Positions 4,823-10,299 of a stretch of DNA of 64,000 nt are shown here, one piece after another. Origin of the DNA: Candidatus Latescibacterota bacterium (GTDB lineage Bacteria > Latescibacterota > UBA2968 > GCA-2709665); the NCBI GenBank assembly GCA_965219455.1, contig OZ244744.1, forward strand, positions 4,992,001 to 5,056,000. The letters run 5' to 3'. Each line of letters opens with the position of its first letter. The stretch's first letter is position 1. The notes beneath the pieces were generated by a model. That model was not told where the DNA came from and did no database searches. It was given only the letters and a program-made list of their open reading frames with translations. The translations under genes were made by a program, and so were the position numbers.

Positions 4823-5760
4823 ACGCGCGGCGGTTCTGCCCGTTGATCTGGGTGTTCTTCCTCGCGTGCCGCCCGCTATCCGCGGCAGGTTGGGAGCAAC
4901 TCGAACGGGAGGGACTGTCGCTTCGGTTTCAGGACATCGACAGGGCGTCGGCGTGGGGGCTTCTGGATGAACTGATCTCCGGGAGGTCCGAGGTTGCGGA
5001 GAAGCTGGGCGGTGGCCACGATGCCCCGGTGACAATTTACGTAGCCGGTTCGCAGCAACTCTTTCAGACCGTCACGCGCGGGCGCATTCCCCACTGGGGG
5101 GTAGGTTGCGCCTTTCCGGCCGAACGGATCGCGGTGTTGCGCCTTCTGCCCGGGCAGCGCGGACAGGTCCTGAAAACGGCCCGGCACGAGATCTCTCATA
5201 TTCTGCTGCACCATCTTGGGCGGTCGCGGGTGCCGCGCTGGTTCGACGAAGGCGTGGCCATGTGGGCCGCGCAGGAATGGCGATTTCGAGAAAGCACCGA
5301 GGTTTCCTATGCGATCTTCTCCGGCGGGCTGGTTCCGCTGGGGGAAATTGAAGGGGTCCTCGGTTTTTCTTCTTCCATGGCGCGCCTGGCGTACACGGAA
5401 AGCCTGCTGGCCGTCCTGTACCTGATCCACCTGGGCGGGCCGGGCGCCGTTGCGCAGGTCGTACATTCGCTCGGGACCGGGGTTTCGTTCGACGTCGCAC
5501 TGTATCGGATAACCGGGCTCACGCCCCGGAAGTTTGAGCGGGAGTGGACCGAATACGCAAGGGGCCGGTTCAGCGCGACGGCCTTGCTGACCTCGGCGGA
5601 GGCTTTCTGGCTCTACATGACGTTGCTGCTTCTCGGTGTTTTCGTGGCGGTCCGGATCCGCAACCGGCGGATCATCGAACGCTGGGATGAAGAATCTCCT
5701 GAAGACGCGCTGCCGTTGCGCCTGCGGCTGAGGGTGCGGCGGCCCGGGGACCGGTCGTGA
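4819..5760 (+). CDS. Peptidase MA-like zinc metallopeptidase, exported and membrane anchored
   Basis: HEISH (HExxH) plus PRWFDEG. N-terminal signal-like segment and C-terminal TM helix. Confidence 0.75.
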   Translation: MNARRFCPLIWVFFLACRPLSAAGWEQLEREGLSLRFQDIDRASAWGLLDELISGRSEVAEKLGGGHDAPVTIYVAGSQQLFQTVTRGRIPHWGVGCAFPAERIAVLRLLPGQRGQVLKTARHEISHILLHHLGRSRVPRWFDEGVAMWAAQEWRFRESTEVSYAIFSGGLVPLGEIEGVLGFSSSMARLAYTESLLAVLYLIHLGGPGAVAQVVHSLGTGVSFDVALYRITGLTPRKFEREWTEYARGRFSATALLTSAEAFWLYMTLLLLGVFVAVRIRNRRIIERWDEESPEDALPLRLRLRVRRPGDRS

Positions 5761-6353
5761 TTGTCGGCGTAACAGGGGGCATCGGGGCGGGCAAGAGCCG
5801 GGTGTGCGATGTTTTCGCCGGGGAAGGCGCGTGGGTGATCGAGGCGGACGAGTTGGGGCGGCGGGCGGTGGAAGCCCCGGCGGTCCTGCGAGCGCTGGTT
5901 GAAACTTTCGGCGGGGATATAGTGGACGACAACGGGCGCCTGGTCCGGCGTGAACTGGGCCGGCGCGCGTTCGCTTCGGCCGTGGCGCGAGACCGGCTGA
6001 ACGCCATTGTGTGGCCGCCGCTCGTGCGGATGTTGCGGGAGGATTCCATGCGTGCGCTCGCCGAGTCTCCGGACCGGCCGGTGGTGATCGACGCCGCGTT
6101 GTTTCTGGAATGGGGCGACCATCGCGCTCTGTGCGACGTCCTGGTGGTTGTCACGGCGCCGGAGGCGGTCCGGATTCAGCGGGCCACGGAACGCAAGGGG
6201 CTGACCGAGGCGGAAGTCAGAGATCGGATGGCGTCTCAGCTTCCGGAGGCGGCAAAGGTGAACGCCGCGGACTGCGTGATCGAAAACAAGGGGTCGGTGG
6301 CGGAACTGGAGACACGCGCGCTGGCGGTCTGGCGACAGATTGCCAAGCCTTAG
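5757..6353 (+). CDS. coaE: Dephospho-CoA kinase
   Basis: GVTGGIGAGKS P-loop, LNAIVWP, RMASQ, IENKG. Confidence 0.95.
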   Translation: MIVGVTGGIGAGKSRVCDVFAGEGAWVIEADELGRRAVEAPAVLRALVETFGGDIVDDNGRLVRRELGRRAFASAVARDRLNAIVWPPLVRMLREDSMRALAESPDRPVVIDAALFLEWGDHRALCDVLVVVTAPEAVRIQRATERKGLTEAEVRDRMASQLPEAAKVNAADCVIENKGSVAELETRALAVWRQIAKP

Positions 6354-6463: not shown

Positions 6464-6703
6464 CGTATTCATGCGCAATAGTGTCTGGCTAGTCGGCAGG
6501 ATATGTGAACCGGTGAATCACCCAGCAGCGGTAGGTCTTTCACACAACATTTCCGTAGAGCGAATGAGGTGCAGTGCCTTTAACTCGTTGACCGGTAGCT
6601 TGTCGGTCTCGCTGAGAGCAACGGACCGGTATTGCCTCAAATGCCACCCATAACATGGGCTTCTCGTTTTCAGATATTGGTACCGGCGTTTTCATGTCTT
6701 TAG

Positions 6704-8405
6704 AGTCTTACAGTAAGACTTCTACGCAAAATGCGTTCATAATTATTCATGCTGCTTGTTTAGTGGTAGTGTGATCGTGGTAAAGGGTGAGGCATTTCGC
6801 GAGTGTGTTGTGGCCGTGACGAGTGACGCGCCATCGTCTGGACCGTGGGATTTTGGCAATCAGGCCGTAGACGTGGAGCCGTTTGAGGAGGCGACTGACG
6901 GCATTGGCGTGCCGTCGGCGATGGGCGGGGGATTTGGGTTGTGTGAAGAGGTGTTGTCGGATGTCCTGATTGCGGAAGCCCATCAGGGCGTGTTCGCCGC
7001 GCAGTACGGCGGTGAACAGGGCGAGGTGGTCGGGGTGGGCCGGGTTAAAGCCCCGATAGGCACGTCCCTTGTGCCTGTGTGGCCGCGCCAGTGTGCTGAG
7101 GCTTTGATGTCCGGTAGCGGCGTCAGGGGCTGCGGACAGCGCCTGAAAGTAGCGTTGGTTGGCCGTCAACGAGATTTCCCGATAGCGGTAGAGGTTGGCC
7201 ACGCCTTTGGCCATGGGATACCAGCCCATCACGCGTTGTCCTCGCCGTATGCCCCAGCGGCGAACCTTGAACTGCCTTGGATGGTTGATCACTGTTTCGA
7301 CGCGTAGTACGCACCCGTGTTTGTCGTACATTTTAATCCAGTTCTCACACATCCGGTGTTTGACTCTTGCGCCTTTGTGGCGTTTGTTTTTGAAGTCCGT
7401 GAGGACTTCACCCTGAAAGTTGCCGTGGAGTTTGCGGCCCAGGAAGGTCAAGATGTCCTGGGGAGAGAAGCACAGCACCGTGTGTCTGAGCAGGTTTTCA
7501 TACAGCGCCTTCAGGGCGTGGGGGCTTTGGAACATCACGTCGGTGGCGAACTCGGCTTGGTCAACGACCCAGTAGTAGTCCATGCCCAAAAGCAGGTCGT
7601 TGAGCAGGGGGTTGACCTTGCGGGCGAACGCCGAGAGAATGCGCGGCCAATTCTTGCCCACAAAACGATCGGCAAAGCGTTGCGCCCGGTCCACATCGGC
7701 AATCCAGACAAACGCGTTGTCCAATTTTTCATAGGCGATGCCGTGTTTGTCGAGCTTGCGCGCCAAGAACTCGTGGCCATTGAGACAGATCTGCACCACC
7801 AGCGGGAACCAGGACTGGATGCGGATATGCATCAGTCCAAACTCCCGGTCAATCCAGTAGAAGTAGTAGCACAGGCATTTCCGTGGGGCGTTCTCCAAGC
7901 GAGGCCTTCCTTCCCCCGGAACGAGCTTGAAACTCTGGCAGCCTTCCAGGGCCCGAAACACACAGACCAGGCCTTGCGTAACCCCATCGCGTTGTGCCAG
8001 GCGGCGCGCTTCGTCCTCTTTCCTGATGGTGTTGCGTTGCAGATAGATGAACGGGCGCTCGTGCTTGTTTGCCATCGCCTCCGCGTGGGCTTTGATCGTA
8101 TCGGAATGCGTCGTCACAAAACGCTTGAAGTCCTTCAACAACAAACCCTGATTGCTGATGAACCGCTCCATCGCATTTCCAAATCCCAGCGGCAGGTACC
8201 CTTTGAACAGAACCCGATCAAAACAGGATACCACTCCGGTGATTTTTTCACTACATTGGTCCACGAAGTCTCTCACGGCGTTCCTCCTTCCGTTGATGGC
8301 GGTGGGTACCACCATCATGGGGGATGAACGCCGTTTTTCATACCCAAAAACAATCTGCTCTTGACTACAACCTATTTGGTTGCGGCTGAGCAAAGCGAAG
8401 CCGCG
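6704..8405 (-). mobile_element. Putative hairpin-ended mobile element without terminal inverted repeats
   Basis: TTAG direct repeats at 6700-6703 and 8406-8409. Palindrome AGTCTTA-CAG-TAAGACT at 6704-6720 and GCGGCT...AGCCGC hairpin at 8382-8404. One large ORF inside. Confidence 0.6.
6747..8276 (-). CDS. Putative transposase/replication initiator with Rep_trans-like motifs and a C-terminal winged HTH (509 aa)
   Basis: GTG start after AGGAGG. Motifs QAEFATD, KMYDK, LRVET. C-terminal GFRNQDIR...VSRLLKRLHVYGLIAKIPRSRRWRVT resembles a wHTH. Confidence 0.6.
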   Translation of the reverse strand: MRDFVDQCSEKITGVVSCFDRVLFKGYLPLGFGNAMERFISNQGLLLKDFKRFVTTHSDTIKAHAEAMANKHERPFIYLQRNTIRKEDEARRLAQRDGVTQGLVCVFRALEGCQSFKLVPGEGRPRLENAPRKCLCYYFYWIDREFGLMHIRIQSWFPLVVQICLNGHEFLARKLDKHGIAYEKLDNAFVWIADVDRAQRFADRFVGKNWPRILSAFARKVNPLLNDLLLGMDYYWVVDQAEFATDVMFQSPHALKALYENLLRHTVLCFSPQDILTFLGRKLHGNFQGEVLTDFKNKRHKGARVKHRMCENWIKMYDKHGCVLRVETVINHPRQFKVRRWGIRRGQRVMGWYPMAKGVANLYRYREISLTANQRYFQALSAAPDAATGHQSLSTLARPHRHKGRAYRGFNPAHPDHLALFTAVLRGEHALMGFRNQDIRQHLFTQPKSPAHRRRHANAVSRLLKRLHVYGLIAKIPRSRRWRVTRHGHNTLAKCLTLYHDHTTTKQAA

Positions 8406-8448
8406 TTAGGCAAGATGACAGTCTATACCTACAAATTGTCGATGCCCG

Positions 8449-8661
8449 CTATGCCAACATCGATCGTTCGCCTTTTGGTTCCGGTATCGGATCGCCGAAC
8501 TCGCGAGCGGTGTCAATCCACAGTTCGATCGCCTCGTTGACGTGTTTGAGCGTGGATTCCTGCGTTTGTCCATGCGCCATGCATCCGGGCAACTCGGGCA
8601 CTTCCGCCACGAAGACGCCGTCGGTGTTGCTCCAATACAGGATGATCTCGTATTTGTACAT
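8449..8661 (-). CDS. hicB: HicB-family antitoxin
   Basis: YEIILYWS..DGVFVAEVPELPGCMAHG..WIDTAREFGDPIPEP. Confidence 0.9.
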   Translation of the reverse strand: MYKYEIILYWSNTDGVFVAEVPELPGCMAHGQTQESTLKHVNEAIELWIDTAREFGDPIPEPKGERSMLA

Positions 8662-8915
8662 TAATCTGGTTCCTTTAGCCTGTATTTCAAGATAACTGCG
8701 CGAATCTGCCGGATCTGGTACGGTTTCGCATGACTACCATCGCGTTGTAGATTCAGTCACTCTGCGATACCTTCTTTTCGAAATATATGATGCCCTCCAC
8801 GTATCCGTTCAGCGAACCCCAGTCTCCGGAGGAGCGCGCGCACGTTGTCGAATCGGATGTTCGCATCCGAGCCACCTTCCAGAATCTGCTGTCGAAGCTG
8901 AGTGTGTCGATTCAT
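8661..8915 (-). pseudogene. hicA: HicA-family toxin with an internal TGA
   Basis: Manual translation MNRHTQ...LGFAERIRGGHHIFRKEGIAE*LNLQRDGSHAKPYQIRQIR. Stop at 8757-8759. Its TAA overlaps the hicB ATG. Confidence 0.8.
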
Positions 8916-9075: not shown

Positions 9076-10299
9076 CTAGAGGTCGGAGAAAGGCAAGGCG
9101 GTAACAGCCGGTCCGAGCGGTAAGCGGATGTCGCCCGGATGCACGACGTAGCCCGGTTTCGATCCGCTTTTCATATCGCCCTGGAATTTCCTGATAGCGG
9201 AGGCCATCACCGGACGGGGGGTAGCGGACAACTTCACCTCGATGGGAACCAGCCCGGCGCCTGTCTCGACCACGAAATCGACTTCCGTTCCCGCCAGGGT
9301 CCGCCAGAAGTAGACCTGCGGGTCTATCCCTCGATGGGTCAATGTCCGGACAATTTCGGACAGGACCGCCGTCTCCATGATGGCGCCGCCCATTGGACCG
9401 GAGGCGGCATGCTCCGGATCCTTGAGGCCGACCAGGTGGCACAGTGTGCCGACATCGGTGAAATAGACTTTCGGGGTCTTGACAAGCCGTTTCCCGACGT
9501 TGGCGAAGTAGGGGCGCAGGACGATCACCTGGTACGTGGCCTCGAGTACGGACAGCCAGGCCTTGATCGTATTGACCGCAACCCCAAGGTCGCGTGCGAC
9601 GTCGGTCAGACTCAGGAGTTGGGCGCTTCGAGCCGCGAGTACGCGCAGAAAACTCTGATATTGAGTCAGGTCGCCGACTTGCCGCAGCGTGCGCACGTCC
9701 CGTTCGAGATAAGTCTGAATGTAGCTGGCATGCCAGAGCGAGACATCCCTGTCGGGTTGGGTCGCGAGTTCCGGATAACCGCCTCTAAGGAAGCCCTTCC
9801 ACAATTCGCCGAATCCACTCGACGATCTTGAAGACGACGGGCGTTCGCGTTCCCAGGGCAGGGATGCCTGTGGGCGCCCTTCGGCTTCACGCCTCGACAA
9901 CGGCAACAGCCGAAGCATGGCGGCACGGCCCGCCAGCGACTCGGTCACGTTTTGGGCGAGCAAGAGATTCTGTGAACCGGTCAACAGATATTGACCGGTT
10001 CTGTTTCGGTTCGCGTCGATCTTCTCCTTGATATAGGGGAGCAGATCAGGCGCGTAATGTACCTCGTCATAGATAACCGGCGCCGGATACAACTCCAGGA
10101 ACCCGCGCGGGTCTTCAGTTGCGGCCGCTCGGACGTCCGGGGGCTCTAGAGACACGTAGTGATACCGCTGTGCGAAGAGACGTTGAAGCAGTGTTGTCTT
10201 GCCGGACTGGCGCGGTCCGGTCAGGACGACGGCAGGGAATTCGACAGCCGCCTTCTTGAGGACCGGTTCCAGTGAGCGTTTGATGTACGATTGGCTCAT
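9076..10299 (-). CDS. AAA+ ATPase with DUF4143 domain
   Basis: LTGPRQSGKTT, DEVHYAP, LTGSQ, ESLAGR, GGYPE, YLERDVR, KTPKVYFTDVG, EVDFVV, IEVK. Confidence 0.9.
   Translation of the reverse strand: MSQSYIKRSLEPVLKKAAVEFPAVVLTGPRQSGKTTLLQRLFAQRYHYVSLEPPDVRAAATEDPRGFLELYPAPVIYDEVHYAPDLLPYIKEKIDANRNRTGQYLLTGSQNLLLAQNVTESLAGRAAMLRLLPLSRREAEGRPQASLPWERERPSSSRSSSGFGELWKGFLRGGYPELATQPDRDVSLWHASYIQTYLERDVRTLRQVGDLTQYQSFLRVLAARSAQLLSLTDVARDLGVAVNTIKAWLSVLEATYQVIVLRPYFANVGKRLVKTPKVYFTDVGTLCHLVGLKDPEHAASGPMGGAIMETAVLSEIVRTLTHRGIDPQVYFWRTLAGTEVDFVVETGAGLVPIEVKLSATPRPVMASAIRKFQGDMKSGSKPGYVVHPGDIRLPLGPAVTALPFSDL

Follow-up and report, generated by a model that had tools for sequence, protein, structure and literature searches.

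The 64,000-nucleotide stretch of DNA analysed here (the window; positions 4,992,001 to 5,056,000 of contig OZ244744.1 of a Candidatus Latescibacterota bacterium) harbors a real, recently mobile and autonomous insertion sequence (IS), which carries one gene only and inserts at 5'-TTAG|G-3' (CCTAA on the gene strand) without target duplication, its features being collected in Table 1. The element is mobile, with exact boundaries, a fixed target, neither terminal inverted repeats (TIRs) nor a target-site duplication (TSD), conserved and covarying hairpins at its ends and invariant motif residues in its protein, and it represents a large IS family that is new and unannotated and lies outside every standard IS family compared. 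The best reading, given a probability of about 0.6 on the basis of sequence comparison, is that the protein of this new family would be a tyrosine nickase resembling the Rep_trans initiators of pT181-type plasmids. The original prediction, made from the letters of the window, had described a rolling-circle-type transposon with TTAG at both ends, a hairpin next to each, no TIR and a 509-residue open reading frame (ORF), and each of these sequence features was found in place.

The source genome (G000), a single contig of 5,844,228 bases, contains 11 copies of the element, 93–95% identical to the window copy, together with about 20 further short matches to one or other element end. Common boundaries were observed for the ten copies that keep both ends, the copy at C1:2451593 being without its first 21 nt; all ten copies keeping the left end start TTAGAGTCTTACAG, and all 11 finish GAAGCCGCG(T/C)TAG and are followed by G, with flanks that are otherwise unrelated. 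Boundaries of 11 copies of the 1710-bp stretch at 6700–8409 falling exactly at TTAG/YTAG place this observation far beyond chance. The left tetranucleotide is TTAG in 10/10 copies keeping that end and the right one is CTAG in 6/11, indicating that the TTAG pair is not a target duplication; what had been taken for direct repeats enclosing the element is the target plus a look-alike borne by the element, and empty sites hold one TTAG. The ORF is intact in nine of the 11 copies, the other two carrying one TAA.

Empty sites were detected for two copies. The related genomes G011 and G013 have the site of the copy at C1:1570778-1572487 uninterrupted, reading ...TTGTTCTT-TTAG-GGGATC..., and the number of G after TTAG is equal in empty and filled sites. 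The window copy's own empty site was observed in public sequencing runs from three separate studies (X1, X4 and X5), examined as contigs and not as raw reads. In X4 and X5, 6699 is joined to 8406 and 1706 nt are skipped: run X4 gave a 1977-nt contig of the empty site whose flanks of 400 and 395 bases have 0 and 2 mismatches, and run X5 gave one contig with this site; in run X1 a contig breaks off from the element at 6703 as a loose end and goes on with the sequence following 8409. The joins indicate that the inserted DNA is 1706 bp long, that the target keeps a single TTAG and that the next G is target-derived, the join at TTAG having a 4-nt ambiguity in which the letters fit either side. In X4 and X5 the depth over the element is several-fold that of the flanks. 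The site of the window copy in the relative G013 is not clean, about 980 bp of unrelated DNA being found there, and the empty sites for copies L004 and L005 are not clean either.

A patchy distribution was also observed, with a protein match in 8/41 related genomes and match counts of 19 in G001 and 1 in G009, elsewhere going down to fragments only. End fragments are found in 15/15 genomes of the genus, gene-less genomes included, and in G000 pairs of ends resembling MITEs (transposable elements of the miniature inverted-repeat type) comprise about 60 nt of the left end and about 50 nt of the right end around an unrelated core of 130–200 nt; such pairs and fragments, occurring also in gene-less genomes, represent MITE-like derivatives and indicate that the ends work in trans. 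The mobility that had been anticipated is borne out by the multiple copies with exact common boundaries, the polymorphism in public runs, the single-TTAG empty sites and the MITE derivatives, and the contrary case, in which homologues would be single-copy and syntenic and lack conserved ends, was tested and did not hold. MITE-like elements lie at G000:C1:2727325-2727561, 4718392-4718655 and 2600528-2600664, and also near 3813306, 2871686 and 1303319; runs such as CCCCCCACCGCATCAGCCGTCGCC ... GACTCCCCCTCAAGGGGGGAGTG abound in their common core, which is also found with one IS end or none, so that it may be a separate repeat family. One IS copy, at G000:C1:4795299-4798565 (L142:418-1899), is split after its base 64 by an insertion of about 1.6 kb that encodes a 493-aa DDE_Tnp_1_4/DDE_Tnp_1 transposase (E 5e-33).

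In eight genomes or lineages the ends were fixed by a comparison of the copies, hairpins not being used, and these eight groups are the non-circular support for the hairpins. All eight start, in gene orientation, with CTAA, CTAG or TTAA (TTAA in two), followed by 1 nt and then by a GC-rich hairpin with a stem of 5–6 bp and a loop of 3–11 nt; one planctomycete lineage has TTAA as its terminal tetranucleotide, and most copies have a C in front of the tetranucleotide. After the hairpin, 6/8 groups read AACC, the RUP group ACCCC and the Desulfobacterales group ATGTT. Five different stems were observed (GCGGCT/AGCCGC, GCGGC/GCCGC, GCGGGC/GCCCGC, GCGGCC/GGCCGC and TCCGGC/GCCGGA), and the changes between them are compensatory. 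The opposite end has a family-wide arrangement of hairpin, GAAGTnAC, a few bases and AAGAnTCTA(A), its subterminal hairpin being present in 7/8 groups with differing stems. Both hairpins named in the original prediction are predicted by DNA folding (z −2.3 to −2.6, + strand); the GC-rich one occurs throughout the family, whereas the type at 6704–6720 is confined to Latescibacterota elements, perfect in the window copy only and degenerate (AGTCTTACAGTGTGACT) in the nine sister copies keeping the left end, the conserved hairpin on that side being the one at 6724–6736. No TIR was found in the window copy or the sister copies.

A scripted search recovered the hairpin arrangement in 30 distinct forms among 79 loci. 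AAC is invariant in 30/30 of these ends, a circular figure as the picking script demanded AAC after the hairpin, and the 100% pairing, with 4/6 pairs changed on both sides, is likewise circular as a perfect stem was required. The first hairpin filter was passed by 52/79 loci, of which six (L107–L112) were false, at another place, and that of L074 was non-terminal; many misses are contigs cut short upstream. At the opposite end the strict pattern was found in 36/73, and most others show ...AAGAnTCTA by eye. Rfam gave no match near the gathering score, with two sub-threshold chance hits. A second family branch, 30% identical, whose motifs are YHK and RTETTIN, makes up a separate element of about 1.84 kb (L140:1409-3245, L141:1364-3181 and L014:1071-2858), with two copies in G001 (93% identical) and one in G005; its ends are CTAG-C-GAGGC-TTC-GCCTC-AGACC at one side and GGCTAGAG at the other.

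The family is large. Among 8000 candidates scored, 4234 relatives were found at E <= 0.001; the protein matches 7293 clusters at 50% identity, 775 of them at E <= 1e-30, and 542 of 589 pattern-matched stretches of species genomes encode a relative. The 79 loci kept from species genomes bear the labels of their metagenome-assembled genomes, which cover more than 10 phyla by label, several genomes being multi-copy: Latescibacterota; Planctomycetota (including Kuenenia and Phycisphaerae); Desulfobacterota; Acidobacteriota; Gammaproteobacteria; Burkholderiales; Lentisphaerota/Victivallales; Armatimonadota; Chloroflexota; Gemmatimonadota; Dormiibacterota; Mycobacterium; a Bacteroidota genus; Paracoccaceae; Raymondbacteria; and one "archaeon". 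Among cultured organisms, the family was located by tblastn on 18 plasmids belonging to Rhodococcus, Burkholderia and relatives, and Mycobacterium, where the homologues are annotated "hypothetical" or, once, "ArsR family transcriptional regulator". The homologue with the latter label (H41) is 34% identical and lies on a Paraburkholderia phytofirmans plasmid (NZ_CP014580.1:252817-254280); the C-terminal winged helix probably gave rise to this wrong label, as is reported for DUF7845 proteins. The source names of the relatives are all "hypothetical protein" except for one "CBS domain" label, and many relatives stand on contigs of 1.7–2 kb, roughly the length of the element itself.

No transposase or nuclease match was obtained for the catalytic part of the protein in Pfam, NCBIfam or PHROGs, the last giving a single weak regulator match, and a sequence search of the PDB returned noise and weak winged helix-turn-helix (wHTH) matches only, with the catalytic part unmatched. 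The hypothetical and regulator labels in public records suggest that the family is absent from the ISfinder rule set, and the search of the literature, ISfinder not being covered, turned up no report of a Rep_trans-like transposase or of this IS family. The earlier statement that the element could not be placed in a standard IS family therefore stands on the database results and on the RefSeq labels of the homologues, "hypothetical" and "ArsR regulator".

Conservation of the protein was assessed in 87 sequences with 30–47% identity to the query and in a wider set of 307 family sequences. Fifteen columns are invariant among the 87 sequences (D20, R21, G26, G102, E111, Y138, Y140, G147, P158, N166, N187, E242, Y317, R325 and E327) and hold up in the 307-sequence set. 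The motif residues are conserved in 260/261 sequences for D20, 290/292 for both E242 and D246, 287/289 for K315, 286/289 for Y317, 283/289 for K319, 288/289 for R325 and 290/290 for E327. The motifs QAEFATD, KMYDK and LRVET, which had been proposed as Rep_trans-like, thus occur in the proposed order and are near-invariant; a fourth, the N-terminal FDR with the equivalent of metal ligand D46, had been missed. The wHTH expected after these motifs was recovered by C-terminal profile matches, to PF25213 in 39/87 members and to HTH_45 in 15/87.

The likeness to Rep_trans is drawn residue by residue. For RepC/D, Carr 2016 (PMC4797284) identifies Y191 as the nucleophile, with D46, D142 and E214 serving as the three metal ligands; R189 and K193 are reported to be essential, and R140, A144, D146 and R212 to be strictly conserved. 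These residues would map onto the family as Y191 to Y317, D46 to D20, D142 to E242, E214 to E327, R189 to K315, K193 to K319, R140 to Q240, A144 to A244, D146 to D246 and R212 to R325, and the mapped residues keep the i, i+2 spacing expected on beta strands. It is this mapping that would carry the weight for a Rep_trans kinship. Alignments of 7 and 27 Rep_trans sequences were built from pT181-type plasmid genes and relatives, and each conserved block was scored ungapped along the whole family profile. The D46 block has its best position at 18 (score 18.9, reached by 0 of 300 shuffles), the RxDxAxD block at 238 (0.043 of shuffles reach its score), the Tyr block at 301 (0.037) and the RxE block at 323 (0.31 for the block alone); all four catalytic blocks are rank-first and collinear, the three motifs of the original prediction among them, and two further blocks (B2 and B2b) have no partner in the family profile. 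A chain score that demands this order reached 53.7, versus 22.6 +/- 4.8 for column shuffles (0/2000 reach it; maximum 49.1), 27.9 +/- 4.7 for shuffles of 25-column chunks (0/2000) and 17.6 for the reversed profile. Independently of the motifs named beforehand, the best local pair in hhalign was gfDRlifrGxl against sfDrmTivGxL, which holds D46 of RepC. Five Rep_trans motifs (N', I, II, III and IV) are defined in Wawrzyniak 2017 (PMC5714925), and three have counterparts in the family: FDR with D20 for motif N', the conserved Asp metal ligand; KMYDK, with a basic residue two before the Tyr, for motif III; and VLRVE for motif IV (W/LxRxE).

The DNA sites can be compared as well. According to Laroussi 2022 (PMC9371924), MOBT relaxases and Rep_trans origins have a conserved nic site, CT'AA in the loop of a GC-rich hairpin, and pT181 contains a CT'AA nic core at L009:4359-4378. 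In the family, the target (CCTAA, gene strand) and both element ends carry CTAA or CTAG, and one of these adjoins the GC-rich hairpin at 1 nt. The fourth base differs between the ends in G000, where the empty site has A, and the base following CTA varies among four copies of the Terriglobia group; these differences place the crossover 5' of the fourth base. C^CTAA (TTAG^G), with an IS608-like geometry, would be the simplest choice as the one register explaining all lineages with the same target, and a CT^AA cut is possible if the planctomycete TTAA lineage targets TTAA.

From these features we infer a fold, a chemistry, a strand, an exact cut position, an intermediate and a dimer. The protein would comprise a catalytic region with the Rep_trans layout and a C-terminal MarR-like winged helix, with D20, E242 and E327 as the putative metal ligands, Y317, flanked by K315 and K319, as the putative nucleophile, and R325 completing the set. 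Probably as a dimer, it would recognise the GC-rich hairpin at the CTAR end and the subterminal hairpin at the opposite end; at both ends Y317 would cut a single strand at the CTA(A/G) core, becoming joined to the 5' phosphates, and the freed 3'-OH groups would reseal the donor to a single TTAG and close the element as a single-stranded circle, or, alternatively, a 3'-OH would prime rolling-circle displacement and the donor copy would stay. The circle junction would then be exchanged into another TTAGG site. The balance tips slightly towards a broader statement, that the family may be the first transposase class built on a Rep_trans tyrosine nickase (TBP-like fold), spread over thousands of lineages in at least ten phyla, and it tips equally slightly towards the part of that statement by which the ends and the TTAGG target would derive from a rolling-circle origin.

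Several observations weigh against a Rep_trans-type nickase and its proposed mode of action. The PF02486 hidden Markov model (HMM) matches neither the protein nor its 87 homologues at E <= 1, has no match in the six frames of the genome at E <= 10, and matches 0/168 genomes of the phylum. In hhalign the comparison with Rep_trans is not significant, with a full-length P-value of 0.24 and core-region values of 0.013 and 0.0046 (reversed 0.1 and 0.32) that are suggestive only, and the comparison with single RepC is not significant either; loosened gap costs lowered the P-values, for the long pair in the reversed control too, and were given no weight. The shuffle nulls break local sequence correlations and so flatter the chain score, and a motif chain run on the single sequence puts the protein only at the 99th percentile of 3870 long genome frames, 39 frames scoring at least as high, among them sister copies and many much longer frames. 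Motif I reads QxE in place of RxD, with Q for R and E for D, A and D being kept; motif II (T/SxY/ExG) is absent, the aligned stretch being KGARVKH (G302, R304, K306); about 125 extra residues stand between motifs N' and I; and the trailing E of YxKxxE is absent, a position at which RepSTK1 has Q and at which E196Q had little effect (PMC4797284). The C^CTAA register places the cut outside the tetranucleotide and not at CT^AA. The circle junction sought in line with the original prediction was not seen: no circle or tandem junction was found in the genome or the loci, and no joint that "goes back" in the public-run contigs, a search that covered contigs and not raw reads and is no evidence of absence. 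With regard to a lagging-strand mode, no orientation bias relative to the replichores was detected (12/24 copies and fragments), the replichores being taken from GC skew only. The cumulative GC skew of G000 has its minimum at about 3.4–3.5 Mb and its maximum at about 5.46 Mb (detrended) or at position 0 (raw), extremes from which the replichores would be very unequal, and on the + strand C outnumbers G by 38,292.

The non-significance in hhalign is itself weak evidence against kinship, as DUF7845 (Rep-Arvir), an accepted structural relative of Rep_trans whose relation is visible only by structure according to PMC13107129, gives no signal against Rep_trans in hhalign or in the chain test; RepSTK1 and RepD share 13% identity (PMC4797284). 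The nickase claim of the original prediction keeps its residue order and collinear blocks and goes without a significant HMM or hhalign score. The same IS might instead have a catalytic fold unrelated to Rep_trans, RNase H-like (DDE/DEDD) or wholly new, with the motif likeness due to convergence or chance. This would agree with the missing significance in both profile methods, with the invariant E111, Y138, Y140, N166 and N187 that have no Rep_trans counterpart, with the unmatched blocks B2 and B2b and with the weak single-sequence test; it is nevertheless judged improbable, as the four catalytic blocks rank first and in order, the element differs from DDE elements in having no TIR and no target duplication, Pfam gives no DDE or DEDD match even at E <= 1 in the 87 members, and accepted Rep_trans relatives (RepSTK1/RepD and DUF7845) are also invisible to sequence methods.

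The TAG core common to both junctions and the empty site, the precise insertion without TSD and the lack of strand bias relative to replication would also fit a double-stranded circle that undergoes conservative site-specific recombination (YTAG|AGTC x TTAG|G, with a 3–4-nt TAG core) in the manner of IS607 or IS110, the protein being the recombinase. Less probable still than an unrelated fold, this account is opposed by the absence of any serine or tyrosine recombinase motif or Pfam match in the protein and its 87 homologues and of a DEDD motif or match, by subterminal hairpins whose compensatory changes point to folded single strands, and by a motif set that is that of single-strand nickases. 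IS110/IS1111 elements in particular differ from the family, which has no DEDD Pfam match, no Rfam match near the gathering score and short non-coding ends (133 nt, 8277–8409, and 43 nt, 6704–6746). Very improbable, finally, is a non-autonomous element mobilised by a Y1 enzyme of the HUH type (TnpA- or RAYT-like) that the host would supply in trans, with the ORF as an accessory, like TnpB in IS1341-type elements. The anatomy is indeed IS200/IS605-like, with a one-sided target tetranucleotide, subterminal hairpins, no TIR and no TSD, and Y1_Tnp matches occur in G000, G001 and G009 (E 1e-8 to 1e-10), but these matches are partial (profile positions 40–121), lie in frames of 203–1252 aa and are alike in G009 with one copy and G000 with 11; no Y1 match lies within any element, and no Pfam match to the HUH Y1 (Y1_Tnp) or Y2 transposases was found in the protein or the 87 homologues. 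The ORF and the ends, moreover, remain associated across at least ten phyla and at identities as low as 30%, and an invariant Tyr is retained in the ORF along with acidic and basic partners. The partial matches of G000 lie 10 kb apart at C1:1912863-1913093 and 1922948-1923169, one of them in a 1220-aa frame, and G009 has a comparable pair; RAYT-like or fused proteins may account for these matches. Three further candidates were rejected: an IS5-type YTAR duplication, since the junction tetranucleotides differ in 6/11 copies; a 3-bp TAG duplication by a DDE enzyme, with which the junctions are formally compatible but which is faced with no TIR and no DDE match; and a group I/II intron or homing element, for which neither a gene nor an Rfam match is present.

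Compared with Rep_trans and MOBT proteins (RepC, RepD, RepSTK1, NicK of ICEBs1 and RelSt3 of ICESt3), the family has the same residue order, D / D(E)xAxD / (R/K)xYxK / (L/W)RxE, 75 residues from E242 to Y317 as from D177 to Y252 in RelSt3 (PMC6499999), an attached HTH domain, and DNA sites that pair a CTAA-type core with a GC-rich hairpin. It differs in having 8 residues between Y and RxE where RepC has 21, in having the core beside the hairpin and not in its loop, and in placing its gene in a 1.7-kb multi-copy chromosomal element and not in a plasmid, phage or integrative and conjugative element (ICE). Strand-transfer chemistry is reported for Rep_trans/MOBT enzymes in PMC9371924, and the roles given in section 10 of the 2017 review (PMC5714925) are replication and conjugation only. 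Rep-Arvir/DUF7845 (PF25227), from archaeal viruses and plasmids, likewise has a catalytic domain of about 300 aa followed by a MarR-like wHTH, a similar spacing of its catalytic residues, with E25, D207, Y283 and E303 against D20, E242, Y317 and E327 in the family, a hairpin DNA site and RefSeq mislabels as transcriptional regulators (PMC13107129). It is archaeal and replicative, has a KHYY motif where the family has YDK, and shows no chain signal to Rep_trans, whereas the family has one; the family has no PF25227 match (in a control, HRPV-3 ORF9 matches at 5e-115), and its hhalign P-value of 0.12 falls in an unrelated region.

IS200/IS605 elements (IS608 and ISDra2) share with the family the lack of TIR and TSD, the subterminal hairpins, MITE-like derivatives, and a fixed tetranucleotide that stays outside the element while the element end carries a look-alike, TTAG here and TTAC as the target of IS608. 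They differ from it in that the family has a 509-aa protein without HUH/Y1 motif or Pfam match, a gene antisense to the TTAG strand and no replichore orientation bias seen. IS91/ISCR elements and Helitrons (HUH Y2) resemble the family in their tetranucleotide target, their hairpin ends without TIR or TSD, and a transposase related to plasmid rolling-circle initiators; the initiator superfamily is HUH in their case and Rep_trans-like here, the family has no Y2_Tnp match, the Y2 transposase with a zinc-binding N-terminus of IS91/ISCR is not matched in Pfam, and the ten two-ended copies of G000 have sharp ends on both sides with no one-ended read-through. To our knowledge, reviews derive transposases from rolling-circle initiators of the HUH superfamily only, and Rep_trans enzymes are listed there for plasmid and phage replication and for conjugation alone. 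IS5 elements, which have TIRs, a DDE transposase and a true 4-bp YTAR duplication, share YTAR-type tetranucleotides at both junctions with the family, in which these differ in 6/11 copies and one is kept in the empty site, and which has no TIR and no DDE match.

Table 1. Positions of the element and its features in the window
Feature	Position	Strand	Remarks
Target tetranucleotide TTAG (CTAA on gene strand)	6700..6703	+	single in empty sites
Element body, in register 3' of TTAG	6704..8409	+	1706 bp; from copy comparison and contig skip of 1706
Terminal hairpin AGTCTTA-CAG-TAAGACT	6704..6720	.	7-bp perfect stem; begins at first internal base
Subterminal hairpin ACGCA-AAA-TGCGT	6724..6736	.	stem 8 bp in sister copies
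Coding sequence of putative transposase, 509 aa	6747..8276	-	GTG start at 8276; stop included
C-terminal winged helix-turn-helix, about residues 430-500	6777..6989	-	MarR chain 3bj6, E 0.024
Codons 315-328, KMYDKHGCVLRVET	7293..7334	-	Y317 putative nucleophile; holds KMYDK (315-319) and LRVET (324-328)
Codons 240-246, QAEFATD	7539..7559	-	E242, A244 and D246 as putative equivalents of D142, A144 and D146
Codon D20 (FDR motif)	8217..8219	-	putative equivalent of RepC/D metal ligand D46
Ribosome-binding site AGGAGG	8283-8288		six bases upstream of GTG
Conserved box TTTGGTT (AACCAAA on gene strand)	8375..8381	.	adjoins GC-rich hairpin
GC-rich hairpin GCGGCT-N11-AGCCGC	8382..8404	.	stops 1 nt (G) before second TTAG
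Element's own terminal tetranucleotide	8406..8409	+	TTAG in window copy
Flanking G, target-derived	8410..8410	+	part of TTAG|G preference

Counted from the first TTG, the ORF has 548 aa; starting at the GTG of 8276, where the homologues also begin, it has 509. Directly beside the insertion lies a hicB-like antitoxin gene (8449-8661, - strand; PF15919, E 4e-9), and also beside it a short hicA-like ORF (8757-8915, - strand; PF07927, E 0.001, under the cut-off); an ATPase gene with AAA_14 and DUF4143 is located at 9076-10299 (- strand), and a CoaE gene lies on the opposite side of the insertion (5757-6353). Six metatranscriptome runs (X13–X20 set), four of them labelled sponge metagenome, contain 20–25% of the sampled words of the window stretch, indicating that the element or close relatives occur in such communities; contigs of run X13 cover parts of the element at a depth of 3–6, which is no demonstration of transcription.

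The known prokaryotic transposition chemistries are those of DDE, DEDD and HUH tyrosine enzymes, tyrosine and serine recombinases, and Cas1. That the family represents a new class of transposase is rated as somewhat probable, and a Rep_trans-type transposase would, if true, add another chemistry to these; rolling-circle initiators would in that case have been turned to transposition on at least two independent occasions, from HUH and from Rep_trans, a second, non-HUH initiator lineage having also given rise to transposons. The family is invisible to Pfam and NCBIfam and labelled hypothetical or regulator, so that IS content is under-counted, which affects Planctomycetota, Acidobacteriota, Latescibacterota, Desulfobacterota and other groups, and the many gene-only contigs of about 1.7–2 kb suggest that it breaks metagenome assemblies. 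The family offers a compact single-protein system that is tractable in vitro: its target of 5 nt is defined, it inserts precisely and leaves no scar, and its DNA ends are structured.

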